A DNA stretch of 64,000 nucleotides from a virus: IMG/VR virus record IMGVR_UViG_3300036770_001537. One strand, 5' to 3'. Both the position numbers and the translations under genes were made by a program. Under the pieces are notes generated by a model. It did not search any database. It was not told the DNA's origin and was given only the letters and a program-made list of their open reading frames with translations. Positions 15,692 through 61,577 of the stretch are shown piece by piece. How positions within the stretch are numbered: position 1 is the first letter of the stretch; every line of letters starts with the position of its first letter.

Positions 15692-16263
15692 GTCATTGTT
15701 TCTATTTTACTAGATTCGTCTTTTCGTTTTAATATTTTCCCTTTGTTCCATGGGATAATACCTTTTTTTGAACTGGACATTTTTCTTTTTGTTTCTTCAC
15801 TCAGTTTTCTTCCTGTTAATTTTAATTTTGTTTCTTCTGAATGTTTTTTTCCAAAAAAATGATTTTTCTTACCTTTTGTTGATTCTGATATTTTTTTCTT
15901 TGTTTCTTCAGACAAATTTTTACCTTTTCTAATTTTTGATAAATTCTTTTTGCTTTCAACACTGCGGATTGAACCAGAACCACCTTCGCCACCATCTGTT
16001 CTATTTCTTAATATTCCAGTGCCATTATCTTTACGACCGTACCATCTAATAAGTCTTCGTTCAAGGGCAAAAGCACCTAACTCAGTTAAGTTCGACTCAC
16101 ATATGACAATTCTTGATTTGTTTTTTGGTGGTTTCTGTTTATCTCTATTTTTCTTTAACCATGCTCTATTACATTTTCCTTTACCAATATAGTAAGGCGT
16201 ACCATCTTCTCTAAGATAAGCATAAACATAAAACTCTAATGAATTTGATTTATAAATAGGCAT
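15688..16263 (-). CDS. GIY-YIG homing endonuclease with NUMOD3 repeats
   Basis: [32 protein letters not shown] repeats. Confidence 0.85.
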
Positions 16264-16337
16264 GTGCTGATACTCCTGTAAGTATTAGGGTGGTTGGAGA
16301 TTGCCGTCTCGTGAACCACATTACATGCCTATTTATA
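16251..16337 (+). ncRNA. structured leader/antisense element, copy 1
   Basis: 15-bp inverted repeat carrying convergent TATAAATA boxes; two internal hairpins covary with copy 2 at 61495-61577. Confidence 0.55.
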
Positions 16338-17702: not shown

Positions 17703-17748
17703 TTACCCATTCCATCTATTAAGATTGTGCAAGGTTATTTATACATAT

Positions 17749-20053: not shown

Positions 20054-20111
20054 TCCCGCAAGGTAAAGTTTGTTGAATATTTATAATATCATAATTCTTT
20101 ACCTTGCGGGA
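20054..20111 (-). promoter_or_regulatory. late promoter inside a 15-bp RBS-sequestering hairpin
   Basis: tcccgcaaggtaaag / ctttaccttgcggga perfect inverted repeat; TATAAATA at 20078-20085 in the loop. Confidence 0.8.
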
Positions 20112-26784: not shown

Positions 26785-26810
26785 AAAAAATGTGGGGAAT
26801 TTCCCCACAT
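26785..26810 (-). terminator. intrinsic terminator after the tRNA operon
   Basis: ATGTGGGGA / TCCCCACAT hairpin + U-tract. Confidence 0.75.
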
Positions 26811-27056
26811 TGTTGATAACATAGTATTTATAGATGATACAGCATGGTTTCCATGAACAATAAAACCGAGAAGAAAAAGATTGTGATATACAGAATCAGT
26901 TTATCGCTCATTTTAACCTCACAGGAATGTTGTCACATAAACTACAAGACCAATTTGAATCACATTACACAGTAGAATAAGACCGACGAGAAGTTTCATT
27001 GCATTCTCCTGTTATGGTGCGAATGGTGAGATTCGAACTCACACTTTGCAGATTTT

Positions 27057-27751
27057 CATACCACTATAGTTTTCACTACCAGAATATACATAAATAGGTA
27101 TAGGCTGTTTGTGGTCTGGACTTTATCTTTACCATATATGTTACCATACTTAGGTACTGGCCGTCAAGTCTCTACACTTCCAAAGGAGGAACTATGGTTA
27201 AACATCGATACACAGAAGAAGAATTGCGACACGCTATATCTTCTTCTCGGTCTATTCGAGAAGCACTTATCACTTTAGGTATCTCTTGTCAAGGAGGAAA
27301 TTATCGAGTCATTCACAAGGCCGTTGCCAAGTATAATATCGACATTTCCCACTTTAGTCAACAAGGATGGGCCAAAGGACAAGTTTTTGGCCCAAAAAGA
27401 GATATTAAGGATTACTTATCTAACCAGTATCCTATATCGTCCTTTAAGCTCAAAAACAGGTTGTTGGAAGAAGGTTTATTAGAACGAGTTTGTTCTAACT
27501 GTTCTTCAACAACTTGGCTAAACGAACCAATTCCTCTGGAATTAGATCACATAGACGGAGATAACGAAAACAACAACTTCAATAATCTCCGTCTTTTGTG
27601 TCCTAATTGCCATGCTCTCACTCCTACTTATCGTGGAAAAAATAAGAAGAAGTGAAGGCACTTTGTTTAGCTCGGTATTGCCATTTTACAGGTTTCACCG
27701 AATTTGACCAGATTCATATAGAAGTTTCCTATCTATATGCTCAAATTGTAT
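27057..27751 (-). mobile_element. group I intron (IC3, trnL-type), 695 nt
   Basis: P AAATTCGGTGAAA (27705-27693), Q AATACCGAGC (27679-27670), R GTGTAGAGACTTGACGG (27177-27161), S AAAGATAAAGTCC (27130-27118); exon U:G P1 pair; terminal G. Confidence 0.92.
27194..27655 (+). CDS. HNH endonuclease, antisense within the intron P6a loop
   Basis: CSNC..LELDHIDGDNENN..NLRLLCPNCH; AAGGAGG RBS. Confidence 0.9.
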   Translation: MVKHRYTEEELRHAISSSRSIREALITLGISCQGGNYRVIHKAVAKYNIDISHFSQQGWAKGQVFGPKRDIKDYLSNQYPISSFKLKNRLLEEGLLERVCSNCSSTTWLNEPIPLELDHIDGDNENNNFNNLRLLCPNCHALTPTYRGKNKKK

Positions 27752-27787
27752 AAGTCTGCTGTCTCTACCTGTTGGACTACATTCGCA

Positions 27788-27863
27788 TGGTGGACCCGGA
27801 GGGATTTGAACCCCCATCTGAACCGTTATGAGCGATTGGCATTAACCGTTATGCTACAGGTCC
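27788..27863 (-). tRNA. tRNA with CAU anticodon (Ile2-like or Met)
   Basis: GGACCTG TAGCATAACGGTTAATGC C AATCG CTCATAA CGGTT CAGAT GGGGG TTCAAAT CCCTC CGGGTCC A CCA. Confidence 0.9.
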
Positions 27864-27882: not shown

Positions 27883-27911
27883 AGTATAACCGATGGTTGG
27901 TCGGATGTCAA
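27883..27911 (-). promoter_or_regulatory. early promoter of the tRNA operon
   Basis: TTGACA-17-TATACT. Confidence 0.8.
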
Positions 27912-29003
27912 GAGAAAAATGCTTCGAGGGATGAAGTTTTTTCCGTCTTCCACCCAATAGAGTCAAGAATAATTTTGAGTGGTTCAACAAACGACTTCTC
28001 GAACTGTATATCATAGTCGATATATTTTGTCAAGTCAAATTCTTCTGGAATAGTTTGTGGGAATGAGATGATATTAGATTTAACGGTATTTGGTTCTTTG
28101 AGATAGATAAATTTGATCTTTTCACCTTCCTTGATAAGTTGATACTTCTTATCCAGCTTTTTCATAGCCACAAGTTTGTTATAAAGTAATGACCCTCTCA
28201 CATGAATGGGTATTCCTTTATCAACCCTGGAATATTTATCTAGTCCATTTACACCTCTTGGAAAAGCAATATCTGCTGGATTCTGCTTTCTAAATTTTGC
28301 CTTGAAATCTTGAATGAAGTCGATAAGTTCTGCCTCACTTTTGTTTAGAATAATATCCAATGCTTCCCATAGTTTATCCTTACACGCGGATGGTGTAGAA
28401 CTCTTAATCATTTCAAGACCCATAACCTTTGGTTCTGGTTTGGCATACTCTACGCCTTCATTATTATACACATTCATAACATATCTTTTCTTGGCAGTCC
28501 AGATACCCTTATCTGCCAAGGCTTCACGCTTCATGATCATCTTTTGAGAATACGCATTAGTATATCTATAAAGTTCATCATAAGAATCGTTAATAAATGG
28601 TTGAATTTTATTTTCGCATACCTTATCCAAGAATGCGATAATCGATTTTGTTGAAGCAGAATGATTCTGTTTTTTAATAGTCTGCCTAACAAGTTCATCA
28701 AATACAATATAAATTGAGTCAGTATCCGATGCAACGATGTAATCCTTATTGCTGTTCAGTATTTTATTTAGGTATTGATTAATTTTCTTTTCAATCCATC
28801 GAATTGACAATTGCCCTGATGTGGTAATTGCTGTTGCCTGACGAATATCATAAAACCTAAAATATTCATTACCAATTGATCCATATGCCGAGTTAAAGAC
28901 ACACCTTTTTAGCCAATTGCAGGTTATTATACCTTGCAATTTTCATTTCAAGAATATGCTTAAGTTCTTCTAATTCACTGTCAGATAAATTTTCTAACTG
29001 CAT
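27908..29003 (-). CDS. 43: DNA polymerase gp43, C-terminal subunit; needs a +1 shift at 28898-28892
   Basis: ATG 29003 MQLENLSDSELEELKHILEMKIARYNNLQLAKKVCL-TAA; +1 frame NSAYG..., ASDTDS, AKKRY. Confidence 0.85.
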
Positions 29004-29745
29004 CAAAACATTTCCCTTTCGTTTTTTTAATCTCTATATCCGTAAATCTAATTATATCATAACCGTGTTGGATTGCAAGTTTATTATATTCTTCATCCAA
29101 CATCTTCTGTTTATCTGTACTATGCCAAAATACTCCATCAAGTTCTATAAGAAGTTTATCTAATACCAAAAAATCATATCTGTGTCCTTCACCATTAATT
29201 TGATATTGTTTAATGAATGATATATTATTTTCTTGGCAAAATTTTTCGAAAGACCTCTCAATCGAGGTTTCTCTTCTATTAAAATTTTTATTATGAATAC
29301 CTGTTACGCCATCGAATGCTAATTGACGAAGAATATCTTTTATTTCCGGTTTCTTCTCATACATCAAAAGAGACGCATCTCTTTTGGACCTTGTATCAAC
29401 ACCAAGTTTTTTCATATATAAAAAAACAGATGATGCACTCATATCATACTTATCAGCAATTTCATATAAATTTAATTTATTATCAATATATTCTTCTTTT
29501 AATGTATCATAATCAAATTTTTGAATGCGATCATGATACTGCTTAGAAGTTTTTGATTTTCCATTTTTACTCACACTAACAAAATGTGACATATTATGCC
29601 TTCTTATGCCGTTATAAATAGCGGCATAAGGCAAACTTAGTGATTTGGAAATCTCACTTACACTGAATCCTTCAATAAGCATTTTTTCAATTTGTTTTAT
29701 GTTCAAATTAACAATTTTGGTGATATGACTATTTTGATTTGGCAT
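28981..29745 (-). CDS. EDxHD/Vsr-like (DUF559) homing endonuclease with N-terminal HTH repeats
   Basis: ETSIE..KQYQI..YDF..IELDGVFWH..D; lies between the two gp43 halves. Confidence 0.8.
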   Translation of the reverse strand: MPNQNSHITKIVNLNIKQIEKMLIEGFSVSEISKSLSLPYAAIYNGIRRHNMSHFVSVSKNGKSKTSKQYHDRIQKFDYDTLKEEYIDNKLNLYEIADKYDMSASSVFLYMKKLGVDTRSKRDASLLMYEKKPEIKDILRQLAFDGVTGIHNKNFNRRETSIERSFEKFCQENNISFIKQYQINGEGHRYDFLVLDKLLIELDGVFWHSTDKQKMLDEEYNKLAIQHGYDIIRFTDIEIKKTKGKCFDAVRKFI

Positions 29746-29793
29746 AAAATACTCCCGCTTTCGGAACAGAGGTATTTAGTATTATTTTGTCTG

Positions 29794-31299
29794 CTATACT
29801 TTTTTGCGACGATTAATCTCCGCCATAACTTTCTCTAGGTCTTTCTTCGCTTCAATCGCTTTCTTTTTATATACAGTTCTATCATTATACATATCTTCCA
29901 TCATCTTAGAAAGAAATCCTTGCTTATCCACACGGAAGAATTGTCCGTTTGGAGTCAGCGTAACAGATTCTTTAGGCAGACCTGATGTATCAATTTCTTT
30001 CTCCAACATTCTATCTACAGTAATGCCCTGACTGATAATATCCCTCATGTTATGGTTATACTTATCAGGCTCAATAAACATTTCTGGTGATATGTTGTAT
30101 TGAATAATCAAATGTGGATATAGAGAGTTCAAATCAAAGGATGCCATCCAATGATGTAGGCCGATGATAGGTTCTTTAACATATGCTCCAACATATGCTG
30201 CATTCTTACTGTTTTTGCGAACAGGAGGAATTACAACATTGTTTTTCTTGAGATGATTATAGATGAGAGCATCCCACATTCTAACCTGTGTGAATACATC
30301 ATCATAATTGGTCTTGGAATCATATGCTAGAGTTAGGGCAAGTTCTAATAGTTTTAGTTTGTCATCAAGCCTCTCGATCAGTTCAACGTCCTTGATGTTA
30401 TACTCAATGAACAGTTGAAAATTGTCACGATAAAGAGTATGAAGATTCCCATATTCCTCATATGACAACTTACGCTCTTTCAGTTCAATATGTGCGATGT
30501 TATCAAGTCTATATGAATCCCTAGACTTTCCAGAAGGAGCATACTTTTGATATAGTTCAATATAATCCAGACAAGAAATGCCTAGAATTGTGTATGTCTT
30601 GGACTGTCTGCCCATACTGAAATTGGTAATTCTATCATATACAGTATTCCAAGGGGAAAGTCTTTTCATAAAGTCTTCTCCCATCAACTTGGTAATTCTA
30701 TTCACAAGATATGGAATATCGAACATCTTCACGTTCCATCCCGTGATGATGTCTGGATAATTGCCCGACCATTCATCAATGAATCTCTTGATTAGATCGA
30801 TTTCATTCGCACATTTGATATACTTAACATCATCTCTAGTATTGTGGAAATCTCCACAACCAAAGACGATATAGGTATCACCCATCTTATATGTGATGGC
30901 AGTAATAGGTTCATATGCAGTTTCGGGCTCAGGAAAACCATTTTCCGAGCCTACCTCGATGTCAATATTGCAGATATTAATATAGTCTTTATCCCATTCA
31001 ACATCATCTGGATGCTGATCAGAAATGAACGCATACTCATACTTCTGCATACCATATACTTTGAAGTTTTCAACTTCACTGTACTTATCGACAAAATCCC
31101 GACAGTCTCTGATACTGCCGGGTTCAATCTTATCTACATATTCACCATAAATTGTGGTATATTTTGTGGGCTTGTTTGATGAAACAAATAGAGTGGGATT
31201 ATACCCCACTCTACCTCTTACTTTTCTACCATTTTCAACACCTCGGTAAAGAATTTTTGAACCATAAGTCTGAACATTTGTGTAGAATGTCTTTGTCAT
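29794..31299 (-). CDS. 43: DNA polymerase gp43, N-terminal subunit (exonuclease + motif A)
   Basis: DIEV, ITGWN..FDIPY, YNIKDV, SFDLNSLYPHLI; ends in the fingers at DRTVYKKKAIEAKK... Confidence 0.92.
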   Translation of the reverse strand: MTKTFYTNVQTYGSKILYRGVENGRKVRGRVGYNPTLFVSSNKPTKYTTIYGEYVDKIEPGSIRDCRDFVDKYSEVENFKVYGMQKYEYAFISDQHPDDVEWDKDYINICNIDIEVGSENGFPEPETAYEPITAITYKMGDTYIVFGCGDFHNTRDDVKYIKCANEIDLIKRFIDEWSGNYPDIITGWNVKMFDIPYLVNRITKLMGEDFMKRLSPWNTVYDRITNFSMGRQSKTYTILGISCLDYIELYQKYAPSGKSRDSYRLDNIAHIELKERKLSYEEYGNLHTLYRDNFQLFIEYNIKDVELIERLDDKLKLLELALTLAYDSKTNYDDVFTQVRMWDALIYNHLKKNNVVIPPVRKNSKNAAYVGAYVKEPIIGLHHWMASFDLNSLYPHLIIQYNISPEMFIEPDKYNHNMRDIISQGITVDRMLEKEIDTSGLPKESVTLTPNGQFFRVDKQGFLSKMMEDMYNDRTVYKKKAIEAKKDLEKVMAEINRRKKV

Positions 31300-39691: not shown

Positions 39692-39768
39692 GAGTTGAGG
39701 TACGCAATAACCTTATCCCCAACATCACTATTTATAATACATTTTTATTGAGTTGTCAAGTATATTTT

Positions 39769-60415: not shown

Positions 60416-60854
60416 TAAGATACATTTCCCATTTGATTATGTTGCTCAACTGAAAAGTTCTATTGTTTAATTCTTTCAATACTCTATCACAATAGTCTAC
60501 TATTTCTTGATGAATAACTTTTTTGATTAGAATTTTATTTAGGTCATCATCAGAATCAAGATACGATGGAATATCCTGCCTCATTATCTTCTTCATCTGT
60601 GGTTCCCAACCATATTCTTTCAAGTCTTCTGGATTATTCAAATCACCCATATAATACTCAATCTTCACTTTCTTGAGAGTATTATATTCATATGATAACT
60701 TCTTGACTATTAGGTTATGATGGGATAGTATGTTGAGGTATTTTGAATGAAGGTTGGGTATTCTACTCAATTCTCTTGTAGGATCGGTAGTATCAACTGG
60801 AGAATCATTTAGCCATTCTTCAGATAGGGTATCTATTGTGACTGGTGGTTTCAT
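60402..60854 (-). CDS. uvsY: recombination mediator UvsY
   Basis: IPNLHSKY, YYMG, R.FQLSNII.W; synteny. Confidence 0.9.
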   Translation of the reverse strand: MKPPVTIDTLSEEWLNDSPVDTTDPTRELSRIPNLHSKYLNILSHHNLIVKKLSYEYNTLKKVKIEYYMGDLNNPEDLKEYGWEPQMKKIMRQDIPSYLDSDDDLNKILIKKVIHQEIVDYCDRVLKELNNRTFQLSNIIKWEMYLNGRG

Positions 60855-60906
60855 ATTTATAATCCTCTATAAAATAATATTCATTATAAAGGATTATTAT
60901 TATGTG

Positions 60907-61507: not shown

Positions 61508-61577
61508 GGCTGGTGCTCCTGTTTAGCATTAGGGTAGGTAGATGTTGGTAGCATCGTGACCTACATTTCTATTTATA
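61495..61577 (+). ncRNA. structured leader/antisense element, copy 2
   Basis: same architecture as 16251-16337 with compensatory changes. Confidence 0.55.

Follow-up and report, generated by a model that had tools for sequence, protein, structure and literature searches.

A trnL-type group I intron with an inverted HNH endonuclease gene in a T4-like phage genome, and its relatives in viruses and bacteria

The 64,000-nt sequence of the IMG/VR record IMGVR_UViG_3300036770_001537, i.e., the whole stretch of DNA that was analysed (hereafter the window), is part of a T4-like phage genome with nearly all genes on the minus strand. It encodes a UvsX-like recombinase and a family B DNA polymerase, whose best cultured relatives are the polymerases of cyanomyoviruses (~49% identity). 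On the minus strand, the polymerase gene is directly followed by a tRNA-Leu(UAA) unit whose tRNA gene is split by a group I intron, and this intron harbours an HNH homing-endonuclease gene that runs in the opposite direction to the intron and to nearly every other gene of the window. The features of the locus are compiled in Table 1.

The split tRNA gene was missed by ARAGORN in its default mode, which allows no introns. With introns allowed, ARAGORN reports a tRNA-Leu(taa) with a 695-nt intron at position 36, and the joined exons form a 77-nt cloverleaf with the anticodon loop CUUAAAA, A73, and an encoded CCA. An earlier note on this DNA, made from the letters alone, had likewise rejoined two tRNA halves 695 nt apart to a cloverleaf with this loop. 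The intron site is the classical trnL position CUU^AAAA, between U34 and A35. In agreement with the earlier note, the insert follows the first anticodon U (27752) and ends in G (27057), the pairings CUGGUC/GGCCAG, CAAAG/CUUUG, and ACCAC/GUGGU occupy P3, P6a, and P9, and the open reading frame (ORF) for a 153-aa HNH protein lies in the P6a loop on the opposite strand, preceded by the ribosome binding site (RBS) AAGGAGG. In P1, U-1 (27752) forms a wobble pair with G10 (27742), a U/G combination present in 42 out of 48 aligned introns, and P8a carries a GUAA tetraloop. Without the ORF, the window intron measures ~233 nt.

A profile hidden Markov model (HMM), built for nhmmer from 33 ORF-less phage trnL introns of the short class, matches the 64-kb window at two places only, both on the minus strand, namely at 27758..27663 (E 3.2e-18, HMM positions 2-98) and at 27183..27051 (E 1.7e-22, HMM positions 105-214). 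According to this segment mapping, the intron is broken between HMM positions 98 and 105, and the P6a loop in between contains the complement of the HNH gene. Since the two matches flank the ORF, the ribozyme is complete and interrupted just at the tip of P6. In the alignment of 48 phage trnL introns, many double compensatory changes were observed for P3, P6, P7, P8, and P9a, and P4, P5, and P9 are near-invariant. Standard pairs occur at every core position of the window intron (P1, P3 to P9), including compensatory variants of its own in P3 (CUGGUC/GGCCAG compared to the consensus CUCCUC/GGGGAG) and in P7 (GACUU/AAGUC compared to GACUA/UAGUC). Insertion site, HMM matches, and covariation thus agree with the type named in the earlier note; the window intron is an IC3 group I intron of the tRNA-Leu(UAA) type (Leu.3Ug).

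A check against general group I models, also proposed there, was positive for the 5' half of the intron and stayed below the gathering score. The first 122 nt alone match Rfam Intron_gpI (RF00028) from P1 to P6 with 28.6 bits (E 6e-6; gathering score 50), the 3' half alone gave no Rfam match, and no intron was reported at the Rfam gathering thresholds. For the whole intron the score is 18.6 bits only, due to the 475-nt P6 loop, which breaks the model; Intron_gpI contains no bacterial seeds and is unable to bridge the ORF. tRNA introns were also handled at 18-20 bits by Williams (2020).

The HNH protein matches phrog_10822, annotated as “HNH endonuclease”, with an E-value of 7.8e-43. Its match to the Pfam HNH family is weak (E 5e-4, 20.5 bits, just under the cut-off of 21.4), and a sequence search of the PDB with the HNH protein gave no match. 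H119, N131, and H140 as well as the CxxC pairs C100/C103 and C136/C139 are invariant in seven intron-borne copies. More than 6,600 homologues of about the same length make this a very large family. Nine antisense copies were inspected for an RBS; most of them, but not L207 and L241, have an RBS-like AGGA or GGAG ahead of the start codon.

Table 1. Features of the split tRNA-Leu(UAA) locus and its surroundings in the window.
Feature	Position	Strand	Remarks
tRNA-Leu(UAA) 5' exon	27752..27786	-	acceptor, D arm, 5' anticodon stem, C32 U33 U34; ARAGORN with introns allowed, sequence
tRNA-Leu(UAA) 3' exon	27015..27056	-	A35 A36 onward, 5-nt variable loop, T arm, acceptor, A73, encoded CCA; ARAGORN, sequence
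Group I intron, IC3	27057..27751	-	695 nt; after U-1 (27752), ending with omega-G (27057)
P1	27740..27754	-	exon C-3 U-2 U-1 and A1 (27754..27751) with guide U9 G10 A11 G12 (27743..27740)
P2 hairpin	27715..27739	-	11 pairs, GAAA tetraloop; ViennaRNA fold, -8.8 kcal/mol
Core, 5' half	27666..27711	-	P3 5' strand 27711..27706, J3/4 AAA, P4 27702..27697, P5, P4' 27676..27671, start of P6; Rfam alignment, covariation
P6a loop	27186..27660	-	475 nt, closed by CAAAG 27665..27661 / CUUUG 27185..27181; nhmmer mapping
Core, 3' half	27057..27185	-	P6a', P6', J6/7, P7 27170..27166, P3' 27162..27157, P8/P8a 27156..27130, P7' 27123..27119
Core, end of 3' half	within 27057..27185	-	P9 27115..27111 / 27064..27060, P9a hairpin, omega-G
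HNH homing-endonuclease gene	27194..27655	+	153 aa, antisense to intron; intact
RBS of HNH gene	27183..27189	+	AAGGAGG, four bases before ATG; overlaps complement of P6a 3' strand
CATAAATA	27089..27096	+	in expanded P9 hairpin loop; earlier candidate late promoter
tRNA-Met(CAU)	27788..27863	-	directly upstream of split tRNA-Leu, one transcription unit
Sigma-70-like promoter	27883..27911	-	TTGACA-17-TATACT, upstream of tRNA-Met; 11/12 consensus positions; consensus match only
Intrinsic-terminator-like hairpin with T run	26789..26811	-	downstream of tRNA-Leu; consensus match only

The closest relative of the nuclease (P0002, 76% identical) stems from a syntenic sister phage that is present in four assemblies (L285-L288) and shows the same layout of tRNA-Met, 695-nt intron, and backwards ORF. 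Between both phages, identity amounts to 97.4% for tRNA-Met, 93.8% and 93.4% for the 5' and 3' parts of the ribozyme, 75.3% (nucleotides) for the HNH ORF, 75.6-81.1% for the neighbouring genes, and 71.4% for the downstream spacer. The apparent constraint on the ribozyme is much stronger than in the surrounding genome. With nonsynonymous and synonymous divergences (dN and dS) of 0.15 and 1.6 and a dN/dS of 0.09 (window versus L285), the HNH ORF diverges like an ordinary gene, apparently under strong purifying selection. The tRNA-Leu exons are 83% and 74% identical to those of L285, with all stems kept through paired changes, e.g., GUG/CAC to GUC/GAC in the D stem and further compensatory changes in the T and acceptor stems. 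Due to the shared layout, the conservation of the ribozyme, and the low dN/dS of the HNH ORF, the arrangement is presumably older than the separation of the two phages and works in both; both parts, ribozyme and HNH gene, look selected. It is scarcely credible that the tRNA gene is dead, i.e., that a nuclease cassette landed in it and the halves are scars, not exons. The atypically short variable loop of the window tRNA would fit such a decayed gene, but the flanks of the ORF constitute a complete ribozyme conserved well above background, the exons keep every stem by compensatory changes, U-1 and omega-G mark a splice site in the classical position, and the same layout is found in bacterial chromosomes (see below).

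The variable loop, on which the earlier note did not remark, comprises 5 nt in the spliced tRNA(UAA), compared to the stem-loop of >10 nt that characterises the class II long arm. A long variable arm is a defining trait of bacterial tRNA-Leu. The tRNA-Leu of the sister phage (L285:2314-3093) retains a variable arm of 13 nt, of which 8 nt were lost in the window. The window tRNA has A73, a 3-bp D stem, and G18 G19; since the long arm is absent, its leucine-acceptor identity rests on the anticodon and A73. Many IMG/VR phage tRNA(UAA) genes adjoining members of the HNH family are just 73-77 nt long.

In IMG/VR, a scan for the core pattern yielded at least 118 contigs, which were then subjected to ARAGORN and a splice-site check. 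In total, 69 tRNA-Leu(UAA) genes carry an intron exactly at CUU^...G^AAAA. They represent 52 distinct introns in two size classes, 194-262 nt (36 introns) and 671-781 nt (16 introns). Two insertion sites became apparent when the long introns were mapped on the HMM: the P6 loop, with eight distinct antisense copies (window included) and two sense copies, and the P1 loop, with six copies, all sense. The genomic context was counted for the best 80 IMG/VR relatives of the nuclease. About 15 of these are situated inside tRNA-Leu introns, and about 55 are free-standing at a distance of ≤131 bp from a tRNA-Leu(UAA) gene, typically ~46 bp downstream and on the same strand. About 10 of the tRNA-Leu genes adjoining free-standing nucleases contain an ORF-less intron of ~200 nt, and a few free-standing copies adjoin other tRNA-Leu isoacceptors. 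Judged by its gene neighbourhoods, the HNH family is apparently specialised on tRNA-Leu genes. The free-standing form occurs in annotated isolates as well, namely Synechococcus phage S-CRM01 and Erwinia phage Cronus. Of the deposited phage records, only those of huge uncultured phages showed the intron, ORF-less in LR756501 and LR756503 and with a sense ORF in LR756511. A blastn search against 50,697 phage records revealed no close relative of the locus; it returned only short stretches of the core, in huge uncultured phages and in capsid-gene introns of pelagiphages. Far from being a singular oddity, the element belongs to a large family.

Further observations were made on the phage records involved. 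In Synechococcus phage S-CRM01 (L282, NC_015569.1 145010-145599), the start of the HNH coding sequence (CDS) g201 overlaps the annotated tRNA-Leu by 34 nt; the start codon of g201 was probably annotated too far upstream. Group I introns of ~180-260 nt were called by ARAGORN in other phage tRNA genes on contigs of the core scan (L081-L198), with the anticodons, unchecked individually, given as Arg(UCU), Arg(CCG), Met(CAU), Gln(CUG), Ser(UGA), Thr(UGU), Ala(UGC), Pro(CGG), Asn(GUU), and Leu(UAG). In case of Pelagibacter phage HTVC120P (L279, MH598807.1 19433-20607) and of KT997847.1 (L280), the capsid gene is annotated as two CDS with a gap of ~190 nt between them, which contains a group I core 92-95% identical over ~41 nt to the P3-P6 region of the window. 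The gap in the pelagiphage major capsid gene is probably an unannotated intron.

The bacterial survey covered one genome per species and the best 80 homologues. Twenty-three of these are situated antisense in the P6 of tRNA-Leu(UAA) introns; other intron-borne copies are in sense orientation, six in P6 and six to seven in P1. A further 32 copies are located free beside an intron-less tRNA-Leu(UAA) gene, mostly in candidate-phyla-radiation bacteria and Hymenobacter. Hosts of the antisense-P6 copies are Gammaproteobacteria and Pyrinomonadaceae, including the complete chromosomes CP070838.1 and OZ243957.1 and the isolate Salinisphaera sp. PC39. The recurrence of this layout in 23 bacterial copies, chromosomes included, would speak for splicing competence.

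In a FastTree phylogeny of 149 nucleases, 30 out of 32 antisense-P6 copies fall into one group of 47 (support 86), which also includes free-standing copies encoded opposite to the neighbouring tRNA-Leu. The antisense-P6 label changes 11 times on the tree compared to 29.4 times in shuffles. Within this group, the nucleases of the window and L285 form a long branch of their own. Intron-borne sense copies pair with free-standing sisters in L267/L274 and L245/L273 in both trees and in L250/L266 in the first, quick tree only, which suggests repeated moves between the intron-borne and the free-standing state. Both trees (quick IQ-TREE and FastTree) are weakly resolved with many unresolved forks, and we neither count origins nor claim a direction of transfer. 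The ribozymes of many viral and bacterial introns alike are 71-77% identical to that of the window and therefore indicate no donor lineage.

In the two closest intron-free relatives by polymerase (L001 and L003, 66% identity), an uninterrupted tRNA-Leu(UAA) gene is situated right after the polymerase gene. A closer look at the pair L213:1-1100 and L214:1180-2070 reveals ~99% identical flanks and free-standing HNH genes around wholly different tRNA-Leu(UAA) cassettes, one of class II with a 200-nt ORF-less intron, the other of 73 nt and intron-less. This looks like the pattern expected from nuclease-driven gene conversion with co-conversion of the target. Presence and absence of the intron vary among relatives, and the HNH gene is located in or beside its presumed target gene. 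The suggestion of the earlier note that a mobile, phage-borne intron could cross between lineages thus obtained circumstantial support from the occurrence of the element in viral contigs and bacterial chromosomes, the clustering of the antisense-P6 nucleases, and the intron-free relatives.

Alternatively, the intron splices and the HNH gene is kept for a role other than homing, such as marker exclusion or superinfection competition at the tRNA-Leu region or help in ribozyme folding, with vertical inheritance only in this lineage. We regard this as unlikely. It would be in agreement with the divergence of the HNH ORF from the sister phage like the rest of the genome (75% of nucleotides), which points to long vertical descent, with a dN/dS of 0.09, which signifies that some function is retained and leaves open which one, with the phylum-specific clades of the bacterial copies, and with phage nuclease genes at boundaries of genetic exchange as described in PMC10055350. 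On the other hand, the variable presence of the intron among relatives, the interleaving of intron-borne and free-standing copies on the tree, and one clade common to phages and two bacterial phyla all find their simplest explanation in continuing mobility. We know of no precedent for a maturase role of HNH proteins, which counts against the folding variant.

With good probability the locus therefore represents a composite mobile element, consisting of a self-splicing IC3 intron and a working HNH homing endonuclease nested backwards in its P6 loop. The tRNA-Met/tRNA-Leu precursor would be transcribed from the minus strand. Judged by its conservation, the ribozyme would then fold with the 475-nt P6 loop hanging out and splice itself to leave a 77-nt tRNA. 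A separate plus-strand transcript, equipped with an RBS of its own, would serve for production of the nuclease. In analogy to known homing systems, the nuclease may cut or nick the intron-less tRNA-Leu(UAA) gene of co-infecting relatives, and repair from the intron-bearing copy would spread intron and nuclease together. Self-splicing, separate nuclease expression, cleavage, and repair copying are taken over from known group I intron and homing biology (PMC3984707, PMC2988022). Most likely, the composite would have arisen by entry of a free-standing, tRNA-Leu-targeting nuclease gene into an ORF-less intron along the “collaborative homing” route; this scenario relies on the natural series described here and on the collaborative-homing model (PMC3984707).

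Several points weigh against such an active element. Splicing and cleavage are inferred, whereas the anatomy, the selection on both parts, and the tie of the family to tRNA-Leu genes are observed. The whole intron scores below the Rfam gathering threshold, and no convincing promoter was found for the backwards HNH gene. The putative target site of the nuclease is indicated by adjacency to tRNA-Leu alone, and leucine charging of the spliced tRNA is uncertain with a variable loop of only 5 nt. Moreover, the divergence of the ORF matches that of the genome, which makes the element look vertically inherited between the window phage and L285, and the comparison of the two would give no sign of recent homing in this lineage.

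The exon sequences next to the intron show a pattern of their own. In 41 unique junctions of intron-bearing tRNA-Leu(UAA) genes, G-5 A-4 and U+5 C+6 are near-invariant (95-100%), and the same positions vary (about 50-60%) in 23 intron-less alleles adjoining free-standing HNH genes. This constancy could reflect exon needs of the ribozyme or the target, or immunity, of the nuclease.

How the backwards gene is expressed was addressed by searches for promoters. The earlier note had read CATAAATA in the P9 region as a late promoter pointing at the HNH gene. The motif is present, but its promoter role was rejected: it is rarer than expected by chance in the window (two occurrences versus 6.7 expected), and the site reads ACTAAATA in the sister phage and is thus not conserved. 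The upstream regions of the other antisense copies contain no recurrent late-promoter motif, except for one TATAAATA in the P8 loop of L210. In the window, minus-strand TATAAATA motifs are located just upstream of minus-strand ORF starts at 16251-16337, 17736-17743, 20078-20085, 26825-26832, 39729-39736, 60854-60861, and 61570-61577. The window phage probably uses T4-type late promoters, but not demonstrably for the HNH gene. A sigma-70 scan of the window revealed no plus-strand promoter upstream of this gene. Family-wide, a weak recurrent TGGTCT-17-TATNAT was observed in about 10 of 32 copies, made of the complements of the P7'/P9.0 junction and of P8; its window version is degraded (TGGTCT-17-TATATG at 27113-27141), and we consider it a lead only. 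A recurrent TAGGCA-16-TACACT was discarded as a promoter; it is the complement of the conserved J6/7 core and lies too near to the start codon.

The orientation of the gene may itself be functional, as the earlier note had proposed with a possible shut-off of tRNA maturation. In sequence, the mRNA of the nuclease is the complement of the P6 loop and, via its 5' leader, of the 3' half of the ribozyme; it could lower splicing and tRNA-Leu supply, or abundant pre-tRNA could restrain nuclease expression. This explanation, which we consider decidedly improbable, is compatible with the composite mobile element and not exclusive of it. Orientation is indeed tied to position, with eight viral and 23 bacterial antisense copies in P6 versus two and six sense copies, and only sense copies in the P1 loop; furthermore, the start of any plus-strand transcript that includes the RBS has to lie in or beyond the complement of P7 to P9. 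However, the bias could equally stem from a single old invasion followed by spread, as the antisense copies cluster on the tree (11 label changes versus 29 when shuffled), and the late promoter proposed for the gene proved to be at chance level and not conserved. It is tempting, though rather speculative, to go further and to regard the backwards-in-P6 copies as a distinct old lineage with a functional antisense arrangement, in which nuclease and ribozyme/tRNA output would control each other through complementary transcripts, the nuclease promoter would be partly written in the complement of P7'/P9.0 and P8, and phages would have carried the lineage between Gammaproteobacteria, Acidobacteriota, and other hosts. 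We give this extended scenario a small chance only.

The tRNA-Met/tRNA-Leu unit is likely driven by the sigma-70-like promoter upstream of tRNA-Met (Table 1). Two further insertions were noticed in its surroundings. At 27908-31299, the family B DNA polymerase gene is split into ORFs of 501 and 343 aa by an ORF of 254 aa (28981-29745), which matches helix-turn-helix (HTH) and DUF559/Vsr-like endonuclease families. As the polymerase gene of L285 is a single, uninterrupted one of 850 aa, the split in the window is a recent insertion of a second selfish nuclease gene. In population variants of the window phage (L369:990-1321 and L370), a 332-bp insertion is located exactly at the 3' end of tRNA-Leu (window position 27015). 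It carries an ORF of 105 aa with its own RBS and without a PHROG match, and is present in some samples and absent from the window.

The window intron shares with the classical trnL intron the CUU^a...g^AAAA site, U-1, omega-G, the compact IC3 core, and a variable P6 that tolerates insertions. It differs in its location in a lytic T4-like phage instead of a cell or plastid, in holding a protein gene, on the opposite strand at that, and in a host tRNA that lost its long variable arm. The classical class (Leu.3Ug, IC3) was counted in thousands of bacterial genomes by Williams (2020). Mobile group I introns with GIY-YIG or HNH genes are known from phage T4 (td, nrdB, sunY) and from SPO1/SP82 (I-HmuI, I-HmuII) (PMC2988022, PMC3984707). 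Common to these and the window intron are the phage host, an endonuclease gene looped from a peripheral helix, and presumed homing at the DNA level between co-infecting phages; the T4 and SPO1 introns, however, interrupt protein-coding genes and carry their ORF on the sense strand, in contrast to the tRNA gene and the antisense ORF of the window. According to a review of 2014, all phage introns then known resided in protein-coding genes, despite the many tRNA genes of phages (PMC3984707).

Collaborative homing and the invasion of introns by endonuclease genes have been described (PMC3984707), the former for F-CphI and the psbA intron of cyanophage S-PM2 and for mobE and the nrdB intron (Zeng et al. 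2009 and Bonocora & Shub 2009, both cited in PMC3984707; PMC2790892). As in these cases, a free-standing nuclease adjoins a gene with or without an ORF-less intron, and the proposed end point is the entry of the nuclease into the intron. Here, by contrast, the target is a tRNA gene, the series is reconstructed from genomes alone, and the embedded gene occurs in either orientation. In protists and fungi, nuclear rDNA introns at L2066 and elsewhere contain antisense endonuclease genes of the His-Cys box type (PMC9548176). They resemble the window gene in lying on the strand opposite to the ribozyme and in needing their own transcription, but reside in eukaryotic nuclei, belong to a different nuclease family, depend on Pol II-type signals and spliceosomal introns for expression, and are not related by descent. 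The tRNA-fMet intron of Synechocystis PCC 6803 with I-Ssp6803I (Bonocora & Shub 2001, as cited in PMC3984707) is a bacterial-type group I intron in a tRNA anticodon loop with a homing endonuclease specific for its tRNA gene. I-Ssp6803I, in contrast to the window nuclease, is of the PD-(D/E)XK type, encoded on the sense strand, associated with a different tRNA, and cellular.

A literature search, with subscription journals largely outside its reach, revealed no HNH gene in a trnL intron and no group I intron in a phage tRNA gene. Within the same reach, no antisense endonuclease gene in bacterial or phage introns was found. Within a large and apparently undescribed family, the window copy is nothing out of the ordinary.

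Phage group I introns have provided researchers with a model system for forty years. With at least 52 distinct introns in IMG/VR, group I introns do occur in phage tRNA genes, mostly in tRNA-Leu(UAA), in contrast to the picture given by the review of 2014. A single nuclease family is found at every proposed stage, i.e., standing alone next to a target without intron, standing alone next to an ORF-less intron, within the P1 loop, and within the P6 loop in either orientation, and this natural series makes the “collaborative homing” hypothesis testable on natural material. How an endonuclease gene running backwards in a bacterial-type intron is expressed and controlled is a concrete question, one raised earlier for nuclear rDNA introns only. 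Finally, a clade common to phages and bacterial chromosomes bears on the debate about vertical versus horizontal inheritance of the trnL intron.

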